Below are positions 1,429 to 49,180 of a stretch of 64,000 nucleotides of DNA, piece after piece. Source of the DNA: a virus; the IMG/VR virus record IMGVR_UViG_3300033121_002167, positions 1 through 64,000 of that record; one strand, written 5' to 3'. Position numbers and translations under genes: made by a program. Numbering within the stretch: position 1 is the stretch's first letter; the number at the start of each line of letters is the position of its first letter. The notes under the pieces were generated by a model. The model was not told the DNA's origin. It was given only the letters and a program-made list of their open reading frames with translations, and did no database searches.

Positions 1429-2070
1429 TAAACGAGTTACAATGAAACCATGAGTGACCCGTGATCTCTCGGGCAGAGGGGCAATAATCTCAGGAGAGTC
1501 TGGGGCTTAAACCACCCGAGCCGCCATGCGCGCGTCCCTGTTCGACTCAGGGTTGCTCCACAGGTTGATGAGCCCAGCTCATCACTCCACCGGGTGACGC
1601 GCATGCGTCAATCCACAAGTTTCCACACATGCTTTTCATCCCCACAACTGACGTCCGAGCTGGCGCACTCATCCAGTGGGCCTCTTCGCTGTACGTTGTC
1701 TTGTGCATCAGTAAAGTTCCCAATCCCACGCTGAGGGACGACTTCTGGTACAAAGTCACGATGCTTGAGCATTCCTGGCACTCCCCCATGAGCCGGCTCA
1801 ACTGGATCGAAGTCCAGGAGAACCACCTGTGGCCTGTGTGCGACGACATTGAGAAGTTCAAGCGTGAGTTCGGTGATTCAGTCACTCCCTTCATACTCGC
1901 ACAATCGTTCCAAGGTTGACGACGCCAGTGACAGTCATGGTGATCGGCATCTGGGCTCACGAGAGCAACGTTTATTGGAGGAGGGTCAGATTCTTCTGCG
2001 CGGAAGAGCAGAGATTCTGGGATACTGTCAGTGAAGTCGACGAGCAGTACTACTACGCAACGATGCTATT

Positions 2071-38720: not shown

Positions 38721-39395
38721 TCATCTGCCGTACTTCTTGTCAAAGTACGTGTTACCAAGTTGGTACAGAACATTTTCTAGCGATGATTGCTTCACGTCGT
38801 GCTTTGCCAGCTGCTGAGCAACTTCACCATGCCTCTGGATCAAGCTTGATTTTGCCGCGCTTTGTCCTGGCCCGTCGTAAGAGTAGTTCAATACCTTGTT
38901 TGGATCTTTCACAAGCTCGCAGTCATCGCATTCTTCTGGTGTCTTTGGATCATCACGATCATCAAACGGTTTCTTGTCAACATCACTGCGCTTCGAAGAG
39001 TAATATTGCCACAACTTCTCGGCAGAAGAATTTGTCGATACCCTATCTGGCATCAAGCCACCGTCGCCATCGCTCATGACAATATCGTACATGAGCGGAC
39101 CGTAGCCTTTCGAAGCAGCAGATCGATGAACTTCGATAGCGTCATTGCACTCGTCAGAGTGTGGGATGGCTTCGATGAAACCGTAGATAAATTCATCGAG
39201 AGGTTTGGAGAATCGCATGCTCCAGAAACCCGGTTCTTGCATGACAGACGCTAGAGTCTTGGGCTCGTAAAGAACGTAGTAAATCTTACCTTCTCGCTGT
39301 CCCCTATAAAGAGCTAGCCCAGCATCTATAGCTTGATCTCCGCCCACTGCTGCTTCAATGAGGTGTGATATGTACGACTTCAAGTGTTGCTTCAT
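38721..39395 (-). CDS. hypothetical protein
   Basis: 224-aa ORF. Confidence 0.4.
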   Translation of the reverse strand: MKQHLKSYISHLIEAAVGGDQAIDAGLALYRGQREGKIYYVLYEPKTLASVMQEPGFWSMRFSKPLDEFIYGFIEAIPHSDECNDAIEVHRSAASKGYGPLMYDIVMSDGDGGLMPDRVSTNSSAEKLWQYYSSKRSDVDKKPFDDRDDPKTPEECDDCELVKDPNKVLNYSYDGPGQSAAKSSLIQRHGEVAQQLAKHDVKQSSLENVLYQLGNTYFDKKYGR

Positions 39396-39703
39396 AGGAT
39401 TCCCACCCTCTTGAACAGCTTTCGATTGTAGTCGCTGAAAGATCCTTGCAGGAGAACAGCGGGTTCAACCCACTTCACCACACCAGATTCATCAGTGTCA
39501 ACGTTACCCATGACTGAGCAAGAGTAAGTCGTCACGAAGTAACCAGCATCATCTTTCTGCGAGAACACTTTTGTTAGATTGACAGCAGTGTAACCGGTCT
39601 CTTCTTCGAGCTCTCTTGCAGCGGCTTCAACCTCAACCTCACCAGGATCCACTTTCCCGTGGGAAATTGTTGCAACTATATTCTTCTTGATCAAGCTTAC
39701 CAC
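39392..39703 (-). CDS. Nudix hydrolase fragment (C-terminal two-thirds, retains Nudix box)
   Basis: 'GKVDPGEVEVEAAARELEEETGY'; paralogous to 40467..41039 but lacks N-terminal ~85 aa; 5' end abuts GIY-YIG gene. Confidence 0.45.
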   Translation of the reverse strand: MVSLIKKNIVATISHGKVDPGEVEVEAAARELEEETGYTAVNLTKVFSQKDDAGYFVTTYSCSVMGNVDTDESGVVKWVEPAVLLQGSFSDYNRKLFKRVGIL

Positions 39704-39715
39704 CTATATAATTTC

Positions 39716-40543
39716 ATGTTTGTGTACAAAATAACTTGCATCATAAGTAACCGAATTTACGTTGGAAAAACAATTCATAGCATAGAGTCTAGATTCAATC
39801 GTCACATAAAACAATCAAAAAATCCTAGTACAAAATTTCATCATGAAATTGCAAAATTTGGAAAAGAAAATTTCGAAATTGTTCTACTACAAGAATGCAA
39901 TTCAGTTAAAGAGCTCAATCAGGCAGAAAGAGATTGGATTGAAAAACTAAACAGTACTGATCCTATCGTTGGTCTTAATTCAACATGCGGTGGTCAGTGT
40001 GGTTTGATGACATGTGAAACAAAAATCAAAATATCAAACGCACTAAAAAATAGAAAACTTTCGAACGAACATCGATCAAAGATATCTGCAATAATGAAAA
40101 CCAAGCACGGTGCATTGAACAATTTTTACGGACGTCATCATGACGATAACACTAAAAAATCAATTTCAAATTCAATGAAAGGTGAGCGCGGTCCGTGCTA
40201 TGGAAGAACGGGCTCAAAACATCCGATGTTTGGAAAAACACATAGCGATGAATCAAAAAAGAAAATGTCAGACATTAAGTCTGGTAAGAAACTTACAGAC
40301 AAGCACTACAAAGCCGTTAAAGCCTGGCATGCGAAAAGAAAAGAAATAATCTCAACCCGTGATGATCAGATTTTTGATCTTATTTTCAACAAAGGCTTTT
40401 CGAAGAAGAACGCGGCAGAGGCTCTAGGCGTGGGTATCAATCTCATTTACGGAGCAATGCATCGATTCAAAGTATCGAAATCTTCTGAAAGAGAAGTTGA
40501 TTGTAACGATAAAATGGAGATTGATTCGGATCGATCAAACTAG
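39716..40543 (+). CDS. GIY-YIG homing endonuclease (I-TevI-like, NUMOD3 repeats + C-terminal HTH)
   Basis: 'FVYKITCIISNRIYVGKT...RFNRH'; repeats 'HRSKISAIMK','TKKSISNSMKG','SKKKMSDIKSG'; AT-rich island (track ORF 39659..40543). Confidence 0.75.
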   Translation: MFVYKITCIISNRIYVGKTIHSIESRFNRHIKQSKNPSTKFHHEIAKFGKENFEIVLLQECNSVKELNQAERDWIEKLNSTDPIVGLNSTCGGQCGLMTCETKIKISNALKNRKLSNEHRSKISAIMKTKHGALNNFYGRHHDDNTKKSISNSMKGERGPCYGRTGSKHPMFGKTHSDESKKKMSDIKSGKKLTDKHYKAVKAWHAKRKEIISTRDDQIFDLIFNKGFSKKNAAEALGVGINLIYGAMHRFKVSKSSEREVDCNDKMEIDSDRSN

Positions 40544-41039
40544 AAGGATTTACCCACCTGATTACGCCACTTTCATTTGTATGAATTGTACCGGATACGT
40601 TTCCGGAAAACGTTGTTGTCATAAATCCATGAGAATCTCTCATTGAAAATATTTCAACTAGATCAGTTACATCAAGTCCAGTTTCTTCTTTCAACTCTCT
40701 TCTAGCAGCGTCAATATCTTTTTCACCAACATCAACATGTCCACCAGGCATACCAAGCGCATTTGGATCATCTTTCCTAGAGACTGCCAAGATCTTTCCG
40801 TTTGGGTTCCTAACAAGAACGCATGCAGCTCGCGGGGCATTCAAAGCTGCGAGCGTCTCGTCTTCTTCGTCATTTGCCAACGAACCACCCACTTCGACGT
40901 TTGTTATCGGCGGTCGAGGATCTGTCAACATCTCACGGATGAGCTGCTTCAGAAGCTTAACTTCTTTGGTTCTGGAAGTGGACATGATTCGATCTGATCG
41001 CAGCTCGTTATGTTCTTGACGCAAGACGGAGCGAGCCAA
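40467..41039 (-). CDS. Nudix hydrolase
   Basis: Nudix box 'GGHVDVGEKDIDAARRELKEETGL'; N-terminal 'KLLKQLIREML' propeptide-like motif. Confidence 0.7.
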   Translation of the reverse strand: MARSVLRQEHNELRSDRIMSTSRTKEVKLLKQLIREMLTDPRPPITNVEVGGSLANDEEDETLAALNAPRAACVLVRNPNGKILAVSRKDDPNALGMPGGHVDVGEKDIDAARRELKEETGLDVTDLVEIFSMRDSHGFMTTTFSGNVSGTIHTNESGVIRWVNPSSLIDPNQSPFYRYNQLLFQKISIL

Positions 41040-41323
41040 ACGCCTGCTGCTTGCGTATCACGGCAGAACACGCTGCACGTTGCCACGCAGTGGTTCGCTA
41101 CGCAACCATGACCCAAGTCACAATCACCAGTGTCAGCGCACAACCTCTTCATGTCGATATCACGGCCCTCTTCGCAACCCAAGTTGTTGAGACGATCACA
41201 TGCAGCCTGGCAGTCACCCGTATCGGTCACAACTGGCGGTTGAGGTGTTACGTTGGACCCACGAGGGCACCCAGAAATAATCAATGTAATGAGAAGGATA
41301 GATACTGCGCCCAATTTTTTCAT
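40949..41323 (-). CDS. Cys-rich putative lipoprotein
   Basis: signal peptide + lipobox 'LIISGC'; 16 Cys in mature region. Confidence 0.5.
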   Translation of the reverse strand: MKKLGAVSILLITLIISGCPRGSNVTPQPPVVTDTGDCQAACDRLNNLGCEEGRDIDMKRLCADTGDCDLGHGCVANHCVATCSVFCRDTQAAGVWLAPSCVKNITSCDQIESCPLPEPKKLSF

Positions 41324-43633: not shown

Positions 43634-44445
43634 AATAGCTTCTTCCCTGTTAGCATTGAGATCAAGAACTTGACAGCGTTAAACAAGATCGCCAAGAAAC
43701 CTTTTGCATCTGGTGTTGGGGGAGGTGCAGGAGGCGGTTCAGGCACAATTATATCAACTGACGGTTGAGTTTTTACTTCAGGCTCTGGCTCTTCGATGAC
43801 AACTGGGATCAGAGGATGATCTGGAAGTTTGTCAGGCCAGTGAAGCGTCATAGCGGGGTACGTGTCTGGTTCTTCAAGAACTCGAGCAGCGTTGGTGAAC
43901 AAGATTACATTTGCCTCGTTGCGAGGCTTCAAGCCGGGATTTCCTGCTTCATTCATCTTGCACGTTGCCGCTGCAGTCAAGAAGTCTTTCTTCTTCACAG
44001 CGGCTTCGAAGCGTGGAAAGTTGAAGCCAGATCCCATAGCCCAAGACATGCTCATGATCCCAAGCTGAGCATCTGCGGGCCATGAATCAAACTCAGGGAA
44101 GCGCTTCTTGACGTGAGCTTCCATCTCTAGGAGCCTGCGCCTGACCAGGTCGTCGCAAGATTTCTGAGACAGCTTTAGAGCCGTGATAGCCCTGAACGAA
44201 GGAGCACCCTTCAGCGCGAGATCTGTCCTAGCTTTAACGTTGTGCCACTCTGTAGCAATTTCACCCGGCGGTGCCAGCCCGCCAGACTTCCTTTCAAATG
44301 GCAACGAAGTAGCCATAGAGATCGGATCGATCAGGTTTCCCCGAGCGATCGTCACCAGGCCTTTGACGTCTAGGTACATGTGCTCAACGACGCCTTCGAA
44401 GCGGCCCGTGAAGCTGCTGAAAGCATCTATGACTGATTGATGCAT
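43615..44445 (-). CDS. GH24 lysozyme (T4 lysozyme-like) with Pro-rich linker and C-terminal hydrophobic segment
   Basis: 'FEGVVEHMYLDVKGLVTIARGNLI' ~ T4L '[23 protein letters not shown]' (catalytic E, D, T). Confidence 0.7.
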   Translation of the reverse strand: MHQSVIDAFSSFTGRFEGVVEHMYLDVKGLVTIARGNLIDPISMATSLPFERKSGGLAPPGEIATEWHNVKARTDLALKGAPSFRAITALKLSQKSCDDLVRRRLLEMEAHVKKRFPEFDSWPADAQLGIMSMSWAMGSGFNFPRFEAAVKKKDFLTAAATCKMNEAGNPGLKPRNEANVILFTNAARVLEEPDTYPAMTLHWPDKLPDHPLIPVVIEEPEPEVKTQPSVDIIVPEPPPAPPPTPDAKGFLAILFNAVKFLISMLTGKKLLCTYQS

Positions 44446-44461
44446 GTACTCTAAGTATTGA

Positions 44462-44926
44462 TCAGCTCTTCCCAGTTTCTTTCAACTTCTTGAGCAGACC
44501 CTCTACGTCAACAAGCTGTCCAGCATGGCGCCTTGCATCTACCTCAAAAGGTGATGACCAGTAAGGATCTGATCCAGGGCAGCCTACTCTGATTGCTACG
44601 TAGCACAGTGCGTACATGATCGGCTGGAAGATTCCGAGCCGCATGACTTGATCTACGTGCTTCTGCTCGTGGATGAGAACCATCGGACGATCAACGGGTG
44701 AAACTTTAAGCACCACCACGTTGCCGATCGCTTGCCCGCCCCACTTCTTCCACAACGCCATCAACCAACTTGGTGATGTGGGTTTGACAGTCCAAACAAG
44801 AGCGTCTCCTTCGACGCCGTGCCATTTGTAAAACCCCGCAGCGGTCATCAGGGCAACGTACAACAACCCAAACAACGTCACTGGCGCGGCCCAGGCGTAA
44901 CCCAAAAACTTCAGAAACTTGGACAT
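44462..44926 (-). CDS. membrane protein with HExxH motif (possible zinc metallopeptidase-like)
   Basis: N-terminal TM helix; 'LIHEQKHVDQ'. Confidence 0.3.
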   Translation of the reverse strand: MSKFLKFLGYAWAAPVTLFGLLYVALMTAAGFYKWHGVEGDALVWTVKPTSPSWLMALWKKWGGQAIGNVVVLKVSPVDRPMVLIHEQKHVDQVMRLGIFQPIMYALCYVAIRVGCPGSDPYWSSPFEVDARRHAGQLVDVEGLLKKLKETGKS

Positions 44927-44984
44927 GTCAATCTCTCCTTGATCAGCTACATGCTGATAGGTAAGAGATGACGCCGAAGTTACG

Positions 44985-46178
44985 TCAGAATTCGCCGCGA
45001 GTTCCGTGCTTCGCGTAGTAATCAGCTTCGCGCCGAGCAGAAGACTTCTTGTGCTTCGACCAAGACTTGATCTCTTCTGGCGTTGGCTTCACTGCGTCTG
45101 CAAACATGTAGTCAGCGCGTTGAGCTCGGCCGTCAGTTGTCCGGCACGTGACGTAGCTACCACCAGTCGACGGCGTATCTTCAAACGAAGCGATCTGAAC
45201 GACAGCACCGCCTGGCAACTTCACCCAGTCACCGACGTTCCAGCCATCAAATGATGTCATTCCCTCGGTGAGAATCGTTCTGATCATCGACTTGAGCTCG
45301 CGAAGCTTGATCTTCATAGCGAGTAAGTATTCACCCCAAAGGTGATCAAACGTCGCAGTGAACTTTCCCCAAGCTTCATCTTTCAGAAGCGACTTAAAGC
45401 CGTACTTCTCGAACGTAGAGCGGACAGGTGCCCAATCTTTGGTCGGCTGCGAAGACGTCATACCGTGCGCCTCTTCGTCAGACCACGTGGTGAACTTGAT
45501 GAGCGAATAATTCTTTCGAAAGGCTTCTTTGTTAGCAGGATCGTTGAAGAACTCCTTCAACGCATCCGGGTCGTCCATCAGCGCCGTGGCAGCACCATCC
45601 GTGATAATCTTTGGGATGTTGTCAGTCGGATCGCCACGAAGAGCCTTCCATGTAACGTAATCAGCGGGAGCTTGCTCAACGTACGTCTTCTTCATCGGGT
45701 TATAGATGCTGACGCCCTCAAATTCATCTAGGAGCTGCGTGAAGTCAGAATCGTTCGATACAACTGTCCACTTCACGGCTCGAGTGCCACGCTTGATGAG
45801 GTTGTAGATCGTGTCATCGCACTCGTGGTGAGGATGACGCACGACAGAGAACGGAAAAGAACCTGCCAACAACCCGACTATCTCGTCGACCTGGCTGAAG
45901 AACTTCACCATCTCATCGTGCTCTTTGGTGCCGGCTTCTACGATGCGGTTCGCCTTGTATTGCGGCAAGATATCGTGACGAGCTTGCGGATGGCCTTCAA
46001 GCACGAAATACAAGCGACTGATATCAAGTTTTTCTACTAGTGCTCGTATGTTACGAAAAAAATTAAAAACTACAGGAGCTGGACCAGCTGTCCAGCCAGT
46101 TCTAGACCGGTGCAAAAAATTCATCCCATCTACTAGACAAATATGAGGACGCATAATTCTATTGTTACGTGCTTCCAT
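44985..46178 (-). CDS. 5'-3' exonuclease / flap endonuclease (T4 RNase H / Pol I 5'-exo family)
   Basis: 'ICLVDGMNFLHRS' (cf. Pol I 'LIDGSSLAFRAF'), 'LEGHPQARHDILPQYKANR'; N-terminal ~50 codons unusually AT-rich. Confidence 0.75.
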   Translation of the reverse strand: MEARNNRIMRPHICLVDGMNFLHRSRTGWTAGPAPVVFNFFRNIRALVEKLDISRLYFVLEGHPQARHDILPQYKANRIVEAGTKEHDEMVKFFSQVDEIVGLLAGSFPFSVVRHPHHECDDTIYNLIKRGTRAVKWTVVSNDSDFTQLLDEFEGVSIYNPMKKTYVEQAPADYVTWKALRGDPTDNIPKIITDGAATALMDDPDALKEFFNDPANKEAFRKNYSLIKFTTWSDEEAHGMTSSQPTKDWAPVRSTFEKYGFKSLLKDEAWGKFTATFDHLWGEYLLAMKIKLRELKSMIRTILTEGMTSFDGWNVGDWVKLPGGAVVQIASFEDTPSTGGSYVTCRTTDGRAQRADYMFADAVKPTPEEIKSWSKHKKSSARREADYYAKHGTRGEF

Positions 46179-46816
46179 TGCTTGTTAAGCTTAATCCGAT
46201 TTACTTGAGAACGACTAATATTGAACAGTTTCACAATGTCACAAACTCTAGTTCCAATTGACAATTGATACTTGATTCCCTTAACATCATCTTCAGTCAA
46301 TGAACAATTTGGATTTTTCACTCCAATCCGTAGTTTAGCATGCTCACTAATTTTTTTACGTGCTTGATCAGTAAGATGTGTTCCGAAATTTGGATTTCTA
46401 GCGCCACGCAAACCTTCCCAACCAAGTCTTGCACGAGAAATTGCCTGGCGATGTTCTAGTGACTTAGGTTTTCCGCGGTGTTTATCACTCATTTTCTGAC
46501 GAGTTTCTATCGAAACAACGCAACCCGTAGATCCTTCTCCTCCACGCGTCAGATTATAACCTCTATCGATGTTAAACGAATCATAATGTGATATCCAATA
46601 AATTTCACGATCATCACACTCATGATCATCACACTCTTCTAGAATTCGAAACTCGAAATTTTCATGACCATATTTTCGGATGGAACAGTAAAGAGGTCGA
46701 AGATCACCTTTCTTGGCAGAATACAAATGTCCTGCTTTTCTATTGGAAAAATTTTTCGTTTGCCCAACATATACTTTCCCGTTGATTAGATTCTGAATCA
46801 GATAAACATATCTCAT
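46133..46816 (-). CDS. GIY-YIG homing endonuclease (Seg-like) with C-terminal HTH
   Basis: 'VYLIQNLINGKVYVGQT...NRKAGH'; AT-rich. Confidence 0.75.
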   Translation of the reverse strand: MRYVYLIQNLINGKVYVGQTKNFSNRKAGHLYSAKKGDLRPLYCSIRKYGHENFEFRILEECDDHECDDREIYWISHYDSFNIDRGYNLTRGGEGSTGCVVSIETRQKMSDKHRGKPKSLEHRQAISRARLGWEGLRGARNPNFGTHLTDQARKKISEHAKLRIGVKNPNCSLTEDDVKGIKYQLSIGTRVCDIVKLFNISRSQVNRIKLNKQWKHVTIELCVLIFV

Positions 46817-47005
46817 TCAATTAAGTATATCGAACCGTGTTGGAGGGGCAAAGAATAGCGTCTCCACGAGAGACCTGATGTTCCTCATGAAGTTGAAGAC
46901 GACGGGCGCAGGACCGCCTGTCCATCCACTTCGGGCTCGATGCAGAAAATTCATGCCGTCGCACAGAACCACGTGAGGTTGTAGCATCTTCTTAGATTGT
47001 ACCAT
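46817..47005 (-). pseudogene. displaced N-terminal fragment (62 aa) of the 5'-3' exonuclease gene
   Basis: 'LCDGMNFLHRARSGWTGGPAPVVFNFMRNIRSLVE' ~ residues 13-50 of 44985..46178 protein but with GC-rich codons. Confidence 0.55.
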
Positions 47006-48014
47006 GACGTAACGTTTCGTTGCACTTCTTCAAGTACCATGCACGCGCAGCAGCTTGCAGCTGACCACGAACGTCGTGCCACTCCAACCCGCTGGCTTCA
47101 AGCTCAGCTTGTGCTTCCTTGAAGACGTCCTTGCACACCCAAGCCAAGAACGGTCCCGTGAGTCGCGGATGATATTCACCACCGAGCGTGGCGACACCTT
47201 GCTCTAGGCGAGCTTCAGACAGAACGAGAGCGACAAACTCAGCTGCAGATGCGGCAACTTCCGGATCAACTTGCGCTGGTTTTCCGTGCGTCAAGATCTT
47301 GTGAGCTTCACCCTTTGCCTTGAAAGCCAAGTTCGTGAACGTCTTCACCGTCGTTGGCAGTGGGTAGTAAACGAGACCTTCACCGACGCCCTCAACTTGG
47401 AACGTGGACTTCACCCAAGGATCGCATCTCTCAACTTCAGCAACGTCGCTGTTTATCTTGTCAACGATGGGTTGCAGATCTTCGACGCGGTGCAGCATGT
47501 TAACGTTGAACGACTTCGAGTGCCAAGGAAGCACGTACGCATCATGGACACCCGCGACCAGCGGCTCGAGCTCGTCAGGTTCAACGATCAGCTTCGACTC
47601 TTCGTTGTCAAATGCGTCTAGGACCGCAGCGGCAAAGACAGCAAAGAACTTCTTGCTGACTTGCGTCAATGCTGTTCCCTTGTTGATGCCAGGTCCGCAC
47701 CATTCACCGAAGATCACTTTGTCGACTGCCACGCCTGTGTCTAGAAACGATTGCGATTCTCTGTGAGCCCATGCTGCCAACCCAGCAAAATCGTTGCCAG
47801 GAGCGATGAACTGCTCGCGGGTCTGGACTGTGATGCCCTTTCGCCTGACTTGGATCCCTGCATTGGCACCATGAAGCTTCACCTTGGGCCTGAAGGTGAC
47901 GTTACCGTCACCCACGATGTGGGGGTAGTTCCTGATGTTCTTCCGAAGCGTGTGGAAGTTGACTATCTCTGGCCATCTGATGAACGACATCTGCTTTGAA
48001 TCCTTCCTGTGCAT
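46992..48014 (-). CDS. RNA ligase, Rnl2 family
   Basis: motif I 'KLHGANAG' (T4 Rnl2 'KIHGTNFS'); 'IFGEWCGPGINK' (T4 Rnl2 'VFGEFAGPGIQK'); 340 aa. Confidence 0.8.
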   Translation of the reverse strand: MHRKDSKQMSFIRWPEIVNFHTLRKNIRNYPHIVGDGNVTFRPKVKLHGANAGIQVRRKGITVQTREQFIAPGNDFAGLAAWAHRESQSFLDTGVAVDKVIFGEWCGPGINKGTALTQVSKKFFAVFAAAVLDAFDNEESKLIVEPDELEPLVAGVHDAYVLPWHSKSFNVNMLHRVEDLQPIVDKINSDVAEVERCDPWVKSTFQVEGVGEGLVYYPLPTTVKTFTNLAFKAKGEAHKILTHGKPAQVDPEVAASAAEFVALVLSEARLEQGVATLGGEYHPRLTGPFLAWVCKDVFKEAQAELEASGLEWHDVRGQLQAAARAWYLKKCNETLRHGTI

Positions 48015-49180
48015 GGAACGACGAGCCAGCAGTACACGCTGTCCCAGTCAATGTTAGCCCACGTTTTACTGATAAATGATACCACAGTACTAACCATTTG
48101 TTTATCTCGAATTAATTCGTGGGCTTCTCGTGATAACTCCGAGCGGTCTAAAGCGACCGACGGAGGATTCCCGTCCACACCGCACGAGAAGCTGACGATC
48201 TTGGTCTCAGTGGGATCGACCGCGACTTGCAACCAATACTTTGACACGTCGATGGCGTGGATGCCCGGCGGCGTGGGAACATTATCTCTGACCTTAAATG
48301 ACCACGTTCGAACTGCAGAACCATCAGCACGGCGCTTGAACTGCACCTTGCTAACGCAGTAGTAGCTAAGAAGATGGTACGCGATGACTCGAGCTGCATC
48401 TTCACGGAGATCTTTGTCATCAAGCGCAGAACGTTGCAACCTGAGATTATAGTTGCGGTGCTGCAAGTCCCACTTCACGTACTCTTCCACAGATTTGATC
48501 GTGGTCTTCAGGTACGCAGGAAAGTTACCTTGCGTATAGCGCAACTTTGCTTCACGCTCAGCACGCTGCAGGCGAGATTCACTCTCGGCACGCTTGATTG
48601 GAATTGCAAATGAATTGAACGTATCAAGCAGGTGCTTGATCTCACCCTGCGCAGTTGCTGTCAACCATTTCGGGTAATTGCGCTTGTCTTCCCGATCGTA
48701 CAGGTGCAAAGCGCCATCGATGGTTGCTGTGATATCCTTAAGCGTCAGCTTCTTGGGTGCCTTCGCTGCCTTCACCGCGGCTTCTTTGCCTGCGGTGAAG
48801 TTGTCTGGGAGCTCGTACTCAATGTTGTTGACGTCTTCGAGCTTTGCCCAGAAGCGAACTTTCGACTTTTCGCCGACAACTTTGAACGTGATCGAATCGT
48901 AGTTGTCAGATCCTTCCTTGGCCTTGTTCGCAGTTCGAACGTAAACTCGATCGATCTCCAACTTCGTGCCTTTCGGCAGCATCACAGACTCGTGCTTGTA
49001 ATCGAGCGGCCAGCCCTTTCCGGATTTGGAACGATTGTGCCAGTTGCTTTTCACATCCTCGTAGACTTTGGGTGCCAAGAGCTTCAGGCACGTGTCGTTC
49101 CTGTCTTCGAGGTAGAGCGAGAAGCTCCAGTCAGCAGCGAGGACGATCTGGTAACCAACTGCAGGTACGAAAAATTTCAC
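47963..49180 (-). CDS. hypothetical protein (operon with Rnl2)
   Basis: 405-aa ORF, overlaps neighbours. Confidence 0.4.
   Translation of the reverse strand: MKFFVPAVGYQIVLAADWSFSLYLEDRNDTCLKLLAPKVYEDVKSNWHNRSKSGKGWPLDYKHESVMLPKGTKLEIDRVYVRTANKAKEGSDNYDSITFKVVGEKSKVRFWAKLEDVNNIEYELPDNFTAGKEAAVKAAKAPKKLTLKDITATIDGALHLYDREDKRNYPKWLTATAQGEIKHLLDTFNSFAIPIKRAESESRLQRAEREAKLRYTQGNFPAYLKTTIKSVEEYVKWDLQHRNYNLRLQRSALDDKDLREDAARVIAYHLLSYYCVSKVQFKRRADGSAVRTWSFKVRDNVPTPPGIHAIDVSKYWLQVAVDPTETKIVSFSCGVDGNPPSVALDRSELSREAHELIRDKQMVSTVVSFISKTWANIDWDSVYCWLVVPCTGRIQSRCRSSDGQR

Follow-up and report, generated by a model that had tools for sequence, protein, structure and literature searches.

Why does one stretch of viral DNA encode the beginning of the same exonuclease twice, with a homing endonuclease gene in between? 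The stretch (referred to as the window) comprises positions 1 to 64,000 of the IMG/VR virus record IMGVR_UViG_3300033121_002167. Its gene for a 5'-3' exonuclease begins with an AT-rich segment, and a short GC-rich open reading frame (ORF) on the far side of a GIY-YIG endonuclease gene encodes a second version of the same N-terminus. The answer developed here is that a mobile cassette has taken over the 5' end of the gene and left the native end behind as a remnant. The cassette is composed of an I-TevI-like GIY-YIG gene, preceded by a promoter-like leader and followed by an AT-rich version of exonuclease codons 1 to ~54. A probability of about 0.8 is assigned to this reading, including the route of entry proposed below.

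The exonuclease gene and its two 5' ends

All coordinates are positions in the window and the whole locus is read on the minus strand. The gene order is RNA ligase, 62-codon ORF, GIY-YIG gene and exonuclease. The RNA-ligase-like gene (46992..48014; Pfam PF09414, E=2e-12) is the upstream neighbor and constitutes the left flank common to the endonuclease-free alleles. It is followed by ORFs of 62 aa (46817..47005), 227 aa (46133..46816) and 397 aa (44985..46178), which lie exactly where the original prediction had placed them. The start codon of the remnant is overlapped by the stop codon of the ligase gene, the TGA of the 62-codon ORF is immediately followed by the endonuclease ATG, and the endonuclease and exonuclease genes overlap by 46 nt where the former ends and the latter begins. 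The true exonuclease start codon may be M9 at 46154.

The exonuclease part of the 62-codon ORF (codons 1–50, 149 nt, 46857..47005) is the remnant, and most of the nuclease domain is missing from it. The following 40 nt (46817..46856) form the left end of the cassette, with 12 out-of-context codons, the TGA and a promoter-like motif; the last 12 codons of the ORF are thus cassette and not exonuclease sequence. Next comes the free-standing GIY-YIG/NUMOD3 homing endonuclease gene (46133..46816). Composition and allele comparison delimit the foreign replacement 5' end, which comprises exonuclease codons 1–54 (46017..46178). The AT-rich tract ends at AGT|CGCTTG (46017|46016), and from there on the gene matches the native alleles. 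This native remainder (codons 55–397, 44985..46016) holds the remaining portion of the FEN/T4 RNase H-like nuclease domain (PF02739) and a C-terminal extension.

The two versions of the N-terminus are clearly related (E=7e-26, BLASTP), as had been recognized in the original prediction, but its term "near-identical" was too strong. Residues are identical at 32 of the 42 aligned codons (76%) and DNA identity is only 63.5%. Where both copies encode the same residue by a degenerate codon, a different codon is used in 24 of 30 cases. The longest exact block common to both copies is ATGAATTTT with 9 nt, located at 46946..46954 in the remnant and at 46116..46124 in the AT copy.

In composition, each copy agrees with a different neighbor. 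The G+C content at third codon positions (GC3) is 0.22–0.25 for exonuclease codons 1–54/57 and 0.62 for the rest of the gene. The remnant, taken as the first 50 codons of the 62-codon ORF, also has a GC3 of 0.62, close to that of the ligase gene (0.61), whereas the endonuclease gene is AT-rich (GC 0.38, GC3 0.28). Native background GC3, determined for 1235 windows of 57 codons from five neighboring native genes, has a mean of 0.60 (sd 0.08) and a minimum of 0.33, which lies above the value of the AT-rich tract. The compositional break postulated within the exonuclease gene is therefore present, as are the AT-rich character shared with the GIY-YIG gene and the host-like GC content of the fragment. 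The tract ends exactly at codon 54 rather than at codon ~50, as had been estimated.

An exonuclease origin was also considered for the 12-codon tail of the ORF, prompted by a BLASTP extension that pairs "LFFA--PPTRFDIL" with "LYFVLEGHPQARHDIL", and was rejected. For the 48 nt upstream of the endonuclease gene in five lineages, local alignment to exonuclease codons 40–90 was no better than for shuffled sequences, the share of shuffles reaching the observed score being 0.27–0.95. The tail resembles the region upstream of the endonuclease gene in other lineages.

The invaded gene is a FEN/T4 RNase H-like 5'-3' exonuclease with a resolvase-like nuclease domain and an H3TH region. PF02739 is matched with E=9e-17 (61.7 bits, cut-off 34.3) and the T4 RNase H structure 1tfr with E=6e-7; the match to PF01367 is weak (17.4 bits, cut-off 40). 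The H3TH motif GIPGIGDK is found in the related locus L003 and not in the window. At this position the gene is mosaic: ~230 nt over the H3TH region (~45445..45675) cannot be aligned with L003:6503–6735, and KIITDGAA stands in place of GIPGIGDK, whereas L003 and L004 are 98–99% identical to the window on both sides of the patch. Furthermore, most exonuclease homologues (~275 aa) end at "...LWG" and lack the C-terminal extension of ~110 aa (residues ~285–397, 44985..45330), which begins around "...HLWGEYLLAMKIKLRELK" and is lineage-specific. It may represent a downstream gene that was fused through loss of a stop codon.

The enzyme encoded between the two copies is a new I-TevI/Seg-like free-standing GIY-YIG endonuclease. 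It matches PF01541 (GIY-YIG; E=6e-11, 43 bits, cut-off 22.6) and PF07460 (NUMOD3; E=7e-8, 32.7 bits, cut-off 20.4). A helix-turn-helix signal is confined to a faint HTH_7 match on the homologue P0123. The catalytic domain (residues 4–90) weakly matches the I-TevI structures 1mk0/1ln0 (E=2e-6); since the match is weak and restricted to this domain, the enzyme is not an I-TevI orthologue. Residues R26, E71 and N88 align with Arg27, Glu75 and Asn90 of I-TevI, and together with Y16 they are invariant in an alignment of six sequences. With the catalytic residues in place in this alignment, the endonuclease looks active.

The 40 nt in front of the endonuclease gene contain a sigma-70-like motif, TTGCCC-16 nt-TATACT (46851..46824, 9/12 matches in a promoter scan), as a putative expression signal. 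A motif like TTGACC...GATATAC precedes most of the endonuclease homologues checked; in L019, L021 and L022 it is in register, and in L018 TGACCTTC is located farther upstream of the endonuclease gene. Just upstream of the motif in L022 (1700–1741), the sequence ...GGAACGCCCATCTTCTTTTGACCC resembles that of the window junction (46845..46865, ...GGAGACGCTATTCTTTGCCCC). This single comparison by eye hints that an illegitimate join may have used ACGC microhomology.

Many I-TevI-related GIY-YIG endonucleases are encoded by introns, and one source labels the present protein "group I intron endonuclease". The fragment could then be exon 1 of an exonuclease gene that is interrupted by a self-splicing group I intron or expressed via some other bypass at the RNA level. 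However, no Rfam family is detected at E≤1 on either strand of 45800..47200, and just 40 nt separate the remnant from the endonuclease ATG. A complete, conserved N-terminus is encoded beyond the stop codon of the endonuclease gene. Moreover, joining the native break point to the position at which native sequence resumes costs 10 nt and shifts the frame. Splicing is thus a highly improbable explanation of the locus.

Allelic states and spread of the cassette

Relatives of the locus are metagenomic contigs obtained by a protein search with the exonuclease, after which the DNA of the loci was compared. The flanks of the close relatives are 97–99% identical to the window. Three allelic states are observed among them, as a presence/absence polymorphism at one site: L001–L004 are without endonuclease gene and L005–L017 and L023 carry it.

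The empty native state is found in L001 and L002, the flanks of which are 97–98% identical to the window. Here the ligase gene runs directly into an exonuclease gene of 396 codons. The remnant of the window is identical to the 5' end of this uninterrupted gene (149/149 nt) and the native part of the window exonuclease has 98% identity to L001. Both alleles lack the AT-rich 5' end as well as the endonuclease gene with the 40 nt that precede it; these 40 nt are absent in L003 and L004, too. A 36-nt sequence spanning the native junction is not present in the window even when 3 mismatches are allowed, and among the fetched loci it occurs only in L001 and L002. As its 149 nt are those of the native 5' end, the exonuclease part of the 62-codon ORF is the displaced native end and not a paralogue. 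The comparison with endonuclease-free relatives hence bears out the core of the original prediction, namely that the cassette came with its own exonuclease 5' end and that the native one was left as a remnant. When the 20-mer at the 3' end of the remnant was searched in metagenome and viral collections, one unrelated chance match (L103) and one already known contig were found.

In the occupied state, at least 23 contigs, derived from many samples, encode an identical endonuclease protein; one of these contigs has a length of 313,755 bp. The contigs stem from independent assemblies deposited at JGI, Logan, ENA and IMG/VR. Both allele types coexist in metagenomes, and a duplication could be produced artificially if endonuclease-positive and endonuclease-free strains were assembled into one contig. 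The junctions are the same base for base, however, at every occupied locus examined (L005–L017, L023), across samples, assemblers and repositories and including the contig of 313,755 bp. An assembly artefact is therefore ruled out for practical purposes.

The third state, an endonuclease-free hybrid, is represented by L003 and L004. These alleles are native up to ...GACGGC-ATGAATTTT, continue with the AT-rich tract to codon 54 and are native thereafter. The switch from native to AT-rich sequence falls exactly at ATGAATTTT. Such an allele would result from recombination of the remnant with the AT copy in an occupied allele, and equally from repair of a cut native allele templated by the AT copy.

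The cassette block (junction, endonuclease gene and AT-rich tract) forms an island of identity. Between L005 and the window, 3 of 855 sites differ in the block and 196 of 2790 sites (7%) in the flanks (Fisher p=9e-20). The flanking differences are distributed over the ligase side (122/1493), the remainder of the exonuclease gene (62/1063) and the downstream DNA (12/234). On the other backgrounds, the block shows 0–5 differences per 855 sites, compared to 2.5–3.5% divergence upstream; it moves as one unit. Over all backgrounds, divergence ranges from 2.5 to 8% upstream and from 0.8 to 5.8% in the exonuclease remainder. A near-identical cassette amid flanks that have diverged by 7% indicates recent horizontal spread. 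In L005 the dense differences end at remnant position 104 and restart at exonuclease codon 56, and thus the exchange is bounded on the left within the remnant and on the right precisely by the transition from AT-rich to native sequence.

The remnant itself carries six substitutions in L005 and three in L007, and all nine are at third positions and synonymous. The simplest reading of these sequences is that diverged strains had acquired the substitutions in their functional native genes prior to the arrival of the cassette, and that a recipient retains its own 5' end when the cassette enters. Alternatively, the 62-aa ORF could be under selection, e.g. as a small protein or as a translated leader for translational coupling to the endonuclease gene. 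It is intact in all occupied alleles, and the nine substitutions in codons 1–50 are silent. Its TGA lies immediately before the endonuclease ATG, and it has inherited the native start codon with its overlap to the stop codon of the ligase gene. Against this, the substitutions track the strain background (4% in the L005 remnant and 7% in the flanks, with a near-invariant cassette) and most simply predate the invasion. The remnant ORF of the more distant lineage L021 described below stops ~60 nt before the endonuclease ATG, so that coupling is not conserved, and 50 residues are insufficient for a nuclease domain. Selection on the ORF is accordingly considered unlikely.

Distant lineages, proposed route of entry and further elements

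Homologues of the endonuclease with 54–61% identity were found in L018 (P0124), L019/L020 (P0125), L021 (P0122), L022 (P0123) and L024. In all of these the gene is located directly upstream of an exonuclease gene, and the upstream neighbor genes differ among the phage contigs. The L022 contig ends ~70 nt into the exonuclease gene. In the complete genes (L018, L019, L021 and L024), the first ~50–55 exonuclease codons have a lower GC3 than the remainder, with a step near a conserved R(L/I/V)YF motif. In L018, L019 and L021 the GC3 of this 5' tract equals that of the endonuclease gene. L024 is intermediate, with 0.40 for the endonuclease gene, 0.56 for the 5' tract and 0.80 for the rest.

The layout of remnant, endonuclease gene and AT-rich 5' end is repeated in L021, the endonuclease of which is 61% identical to that of the window. 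Its remnant is GC-rich (GC3 0.62), reads "MASILCIDGMYLLHRGRSGFKLGPAPVIFNFMRTFRALVE" and is followed by unrelated codons and a stop. GC3 is 0.35 in the endonuclease gene, 0.32–0.34 in the 5' end of the exonuclease gene and 0.67–0.69 in its remainder. The break points of the two remnants, "...ALVE" in L021 and "...LVETL" in the window, agree within two codons. The association of the endonuclease with a compositionally distinct exonuclease 5' end is thus observed recurrently.

These lineages also bear on the proposal that the first ~50 codons were duplicated in place, that the endonuclease gene was inserted between the copies, and that the downstream copy drifted to AT. Two direct copies do flank the endonuclease gene. 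The AT copy, however, agrees with the endonuclease gene in GC3 and is part of the same identity island, and AT-rich 5' tracts occur without any duplicate in L018, L019 and L024. Furthermore, no divergence from the native alleles is seen in the upstream copy, but the downstream copy is near saturation at synonymous sites. Tandem duplication is therefore very unlikely.

Gene-end replacement by a mobile cassette could have proceeded as follows. The endonuclease would cut endonuclease-free alleles ~150–165 nt inside the exonuclease gene, near native codons 48–56; the predicted cleavage site is represented by CTCGTGGAGACGCT/CGAACCGACT/CGCTTGTATTTC. With the endonuclease gene upstream and the cut inside the exonuclease gene, everything in between would be copied along with the endonuclease gene, and this co-copying would explain that exonuclease codons 1 to ~55 resemble the endonuclease gene, and not the resident gene, in composition and history. 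If donor and recipient have the upstream gene in common, ordinary homing would exchange the 5' end and no remnant would stay behind; L018, L019 and L024 correspond to this case.

In the window lineage the upstream neighbor is a different one, the RNA ligase gene, and the first acquisition would therefore have to be one-sided. The right end of the break would be repaired via homology to the exonuclease gene of the donor, and repair synthesis would extend from there across the AT-rich 5' end and the endonuclease gene up to and including the leader. An illegitimate join would then connect the product with the left break end, and codons 1–50 of the recipient would survive as the upstream remnant. 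In this respect the label of a "textbook" footprint of homing with co-conversion, which had been given to the locus, does not hold. Ordinary co-conversion replaces the homologous flank without producing a duplicate; for a native 5' end to be retained, the 3' side of the break has to be repaired by homology and the 5' side joined illegitimately. A short inverted repeat, GTCTC-TCGTG-GAGAC (46860..46874, minus strand), coincides with the 3' terminus of the native remnant and adjoins the predicted break point. It was flagged by a terminator scan because the junction provides a T-rich tail. The repeat could be a piece of the endonuclease target, or it could be due to chance.

The insertion would destroy the target. 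The remnant breaks off at the predicted site, and in the working copy this site is recoded. The AT copy is accordingly predicted to be resistant to cleavage. From then on the new allele would spread by ordinary homing, with the ligase gene and the remnant as left arm and the exonuclease remainder as right arm. A left arm composed of ligase gene and remnant fits the identity island and the strain-specific remnants. Occasional recombination between the diverged copies would delete the endonuclease gene and leave a hybrid, presumably resistant allele.

Several points weigh against this scheme. The position of the target is deduced only from the junctions and the tract boundaries, and the promoter-like motif is a consensus match only. 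The exclusively synonymous changes in the remnant also fit selection on the 62-aa peptide. A remnant was not detected in L018, L019, L022 and L024; the element can thus exist without one. The remnants of the window and of L021 could in principle derive from one shared old event rather than from two independent ones. Among 80 IMG/VR loci with relatives of the endonuclease, linkage to an exonuclease gene is seen only in L023, which belongs to the same lineage, and in L024, and no further lineage with a remnant was found. The donor genome was not found either: among 120 exonuclease homologues, the best match of the AT-rich tract outside the lineage has 71% protein identity over 48 residues, and no other sampled exonuclease exceeds this value. 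Cultured phage genomes gave no DNA match to 44400..48100, and a protein search of cultured phages yielded only distant exonucleases (25–31% identity). Hence no cultured relative or donor is at hand.

A second, mirror-image case in the same window (39305..41048) concerns a NUDIX gene (41039..40467, minus strand). This gene matches the gene of L006 and L007, which are endonuclease-free at this locus, through "...RKDDPN". The C-terminal half that follows is foreign and AT-rich (GC3 0.10–0.30). After the NUDIX gene lies an antisense GIY-YIG/NUMOD3 gene (39659..40543, plus strand; GC3 0.31). A 103-codon ORF (39703..39392) encodes ~90 residues that are identical in protein sequence to the native C-terminal half of L006, preceded by an unrelated start of ~13 residues. 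Window positions 39658..39305 are 99% identical to L006 at the DNA level. The arrangement is also present in L005, and L006 and L007 are empty.

The NUDIX case supports gene-end replacement as a recurrent route of invasion in this phage group. Whether endonucleases of this jumbo-phage group routinely travel as gene-end replacement cassettes, i.e. as an endonuclease gene plus the diverged target end that lies between gene and cut, is rated as an even bet. As homology would be required on just one side, a cassette of this kind could invade genomes of different gene order. If this holds, the native end left as a remnant would serve as homology arm for spread within the population, and loss by recombination would yield resistant hybrid alleles. 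The cassettes would then be the phage counterpart of the fungal mitochondrial elements called mORFs (mobile endonuclease ORFs) and a regular route by which pieces of essential genes are exchanged between distant phages.

Other mobile elements were noted in the window. In a papain-like peptidase C1 gene (41651..43633, minus strand, 660 aa), the coding sequence is split by an intein that contains an HNH endonuclease domain. L001 and L010 also carry this intein, but it is absent from L004–L009 and L012–L014, where the gene has 268 aa; it is thus polymorphic in the population. A third GIY-YIG gene (57987..58832, minus strand) with NUMOD1 and I-HmuI-like modules is embedded in an AT-rich patch, and inspection of the ORFs next to it revealed no flanking duplication. 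Another AT-rich ORF (62945..63925, minus strand; GC 0.37) contains ROS/MucR and NUMOD3 motifs. The genome context includes a major-vault-protein-like ORF with vault shoulder and repeat domains (19824..22511, plus strand), a GroEL-type chaperonin gene (30571..32196, minus strand) and a tRNA-Leu(TAA) gene (1478..1561, plus strand). This gene content and the occurrence of relatives on contigs of 270–350 kb are consistent with an uncultured jumbo phage.

Significance and comparison with known systems

The locus displays the life stages of a homing endonuclease in natural phage populations: the empty site, the invaded site with a remnant that marks the break, the allele that spreads across diverged backgrounds and the hybrid allele presumably left after loss of the endonuclease gene. 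It illustrates how an endonuclease may enter a genome with homology on one side only and how distant phages exchange pieces of essential replication genes that travel as passengers. A consequence for annotation is that short ORFs of typical GC content beside AT-rich endonuclease genes may be displaced gene ends and that the neighboring gene may be chimeric. The invasion by a selfish homing endonuclease as such is already known; what the locus adds is the full series of allelic states and a narrowly defined predicted cleavage site.

Insertions of endonuclease genes that split phage genes include mobE in nrdA of Aeromonas phage Aeh1 and mobA with the gene 60 bypass in T4. As in the window, a free-standing endonuclease gene is located in or next to an essential gene of replication or nucleotide metabolism, the function of which is preserved. 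In those cases the function is maintained by expression in two pieces or by translational bypass, whereas in the window a complete replacement 5' end is provided.

The Seg endonucleases of T4-like phages (SegA–G) and I-TevI have in common with the present system the GIY-YIG domain, which aligns with that of I-TevI, together with NUMOD3, the location of the gene between phage genes and its variable presence in close relatives. Seg enzymes cut at a distance inside a conserved neighboring gene, and the intervening DNA is co-converted (reviewed in PMC2988022); the corresponding cut in the window is inferred. The loci differ in that the native copy of the co-converted segment is retained here as a remnant. 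No description of such a remnant at T4 Seg loci was found in the literature searched.

For the join on the other side, a precedent exists in one-sided homing of the td intron in T4, in which microhomology was used and which was shown experimentally (Parker, Belisle and Belfort 1999, as outlined in PMC2988022). It was proposed as a route into ectopic sites. As described there, the td system consisted of an engineered plasmid–phage pair and an intron, whereas the window carries a natural, population-wide allele of a free-standing endonuclease.

A further resemblance is to the mORFs in fungal mitochondria, which are known from atp6 of Allomyces macrogynus and from atp6, atp9, cox2 and nad3 of Glomus. 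There, a foreign gene end creates hybrid genes, and the displaced native ends show only synonymous differences to endonuclease-free relatives (PMC3630166). Partial C-terminal duplications are also described in PMC6279837. In the literature searched, these fungal mitochondrial cases are the only ones in which an endonuclease is accompanied by a displaced gene end, and no phage precedent was found, which does not prove that none exists. In both systems the endonuclease ORF travels with a diverged foreign gene end that is joined in frame to the resident gene; in the window, AT-rich codons 1–54 are in frame with native codons 55–397. The native terminus is likewise displaced and kept, matching the endonuclease-free relatives, here at every position of the 149 nt. 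In all described mORFs, however, the 3' (C-terminal) end is replaced and the endonuclease, mostly of the LAGLIDADG type, is often fused in frame. In the window, a phage gene has received a new 5' (N-terminal) end including the start codon, and the endonuclease is encoded by a separate ORF upstream. The NUDIX case, as a 3'-end analogue, is closer to the fungal elements. The element in the window mirrors the mORF hybrids and works like them, and it is not a member of that group.

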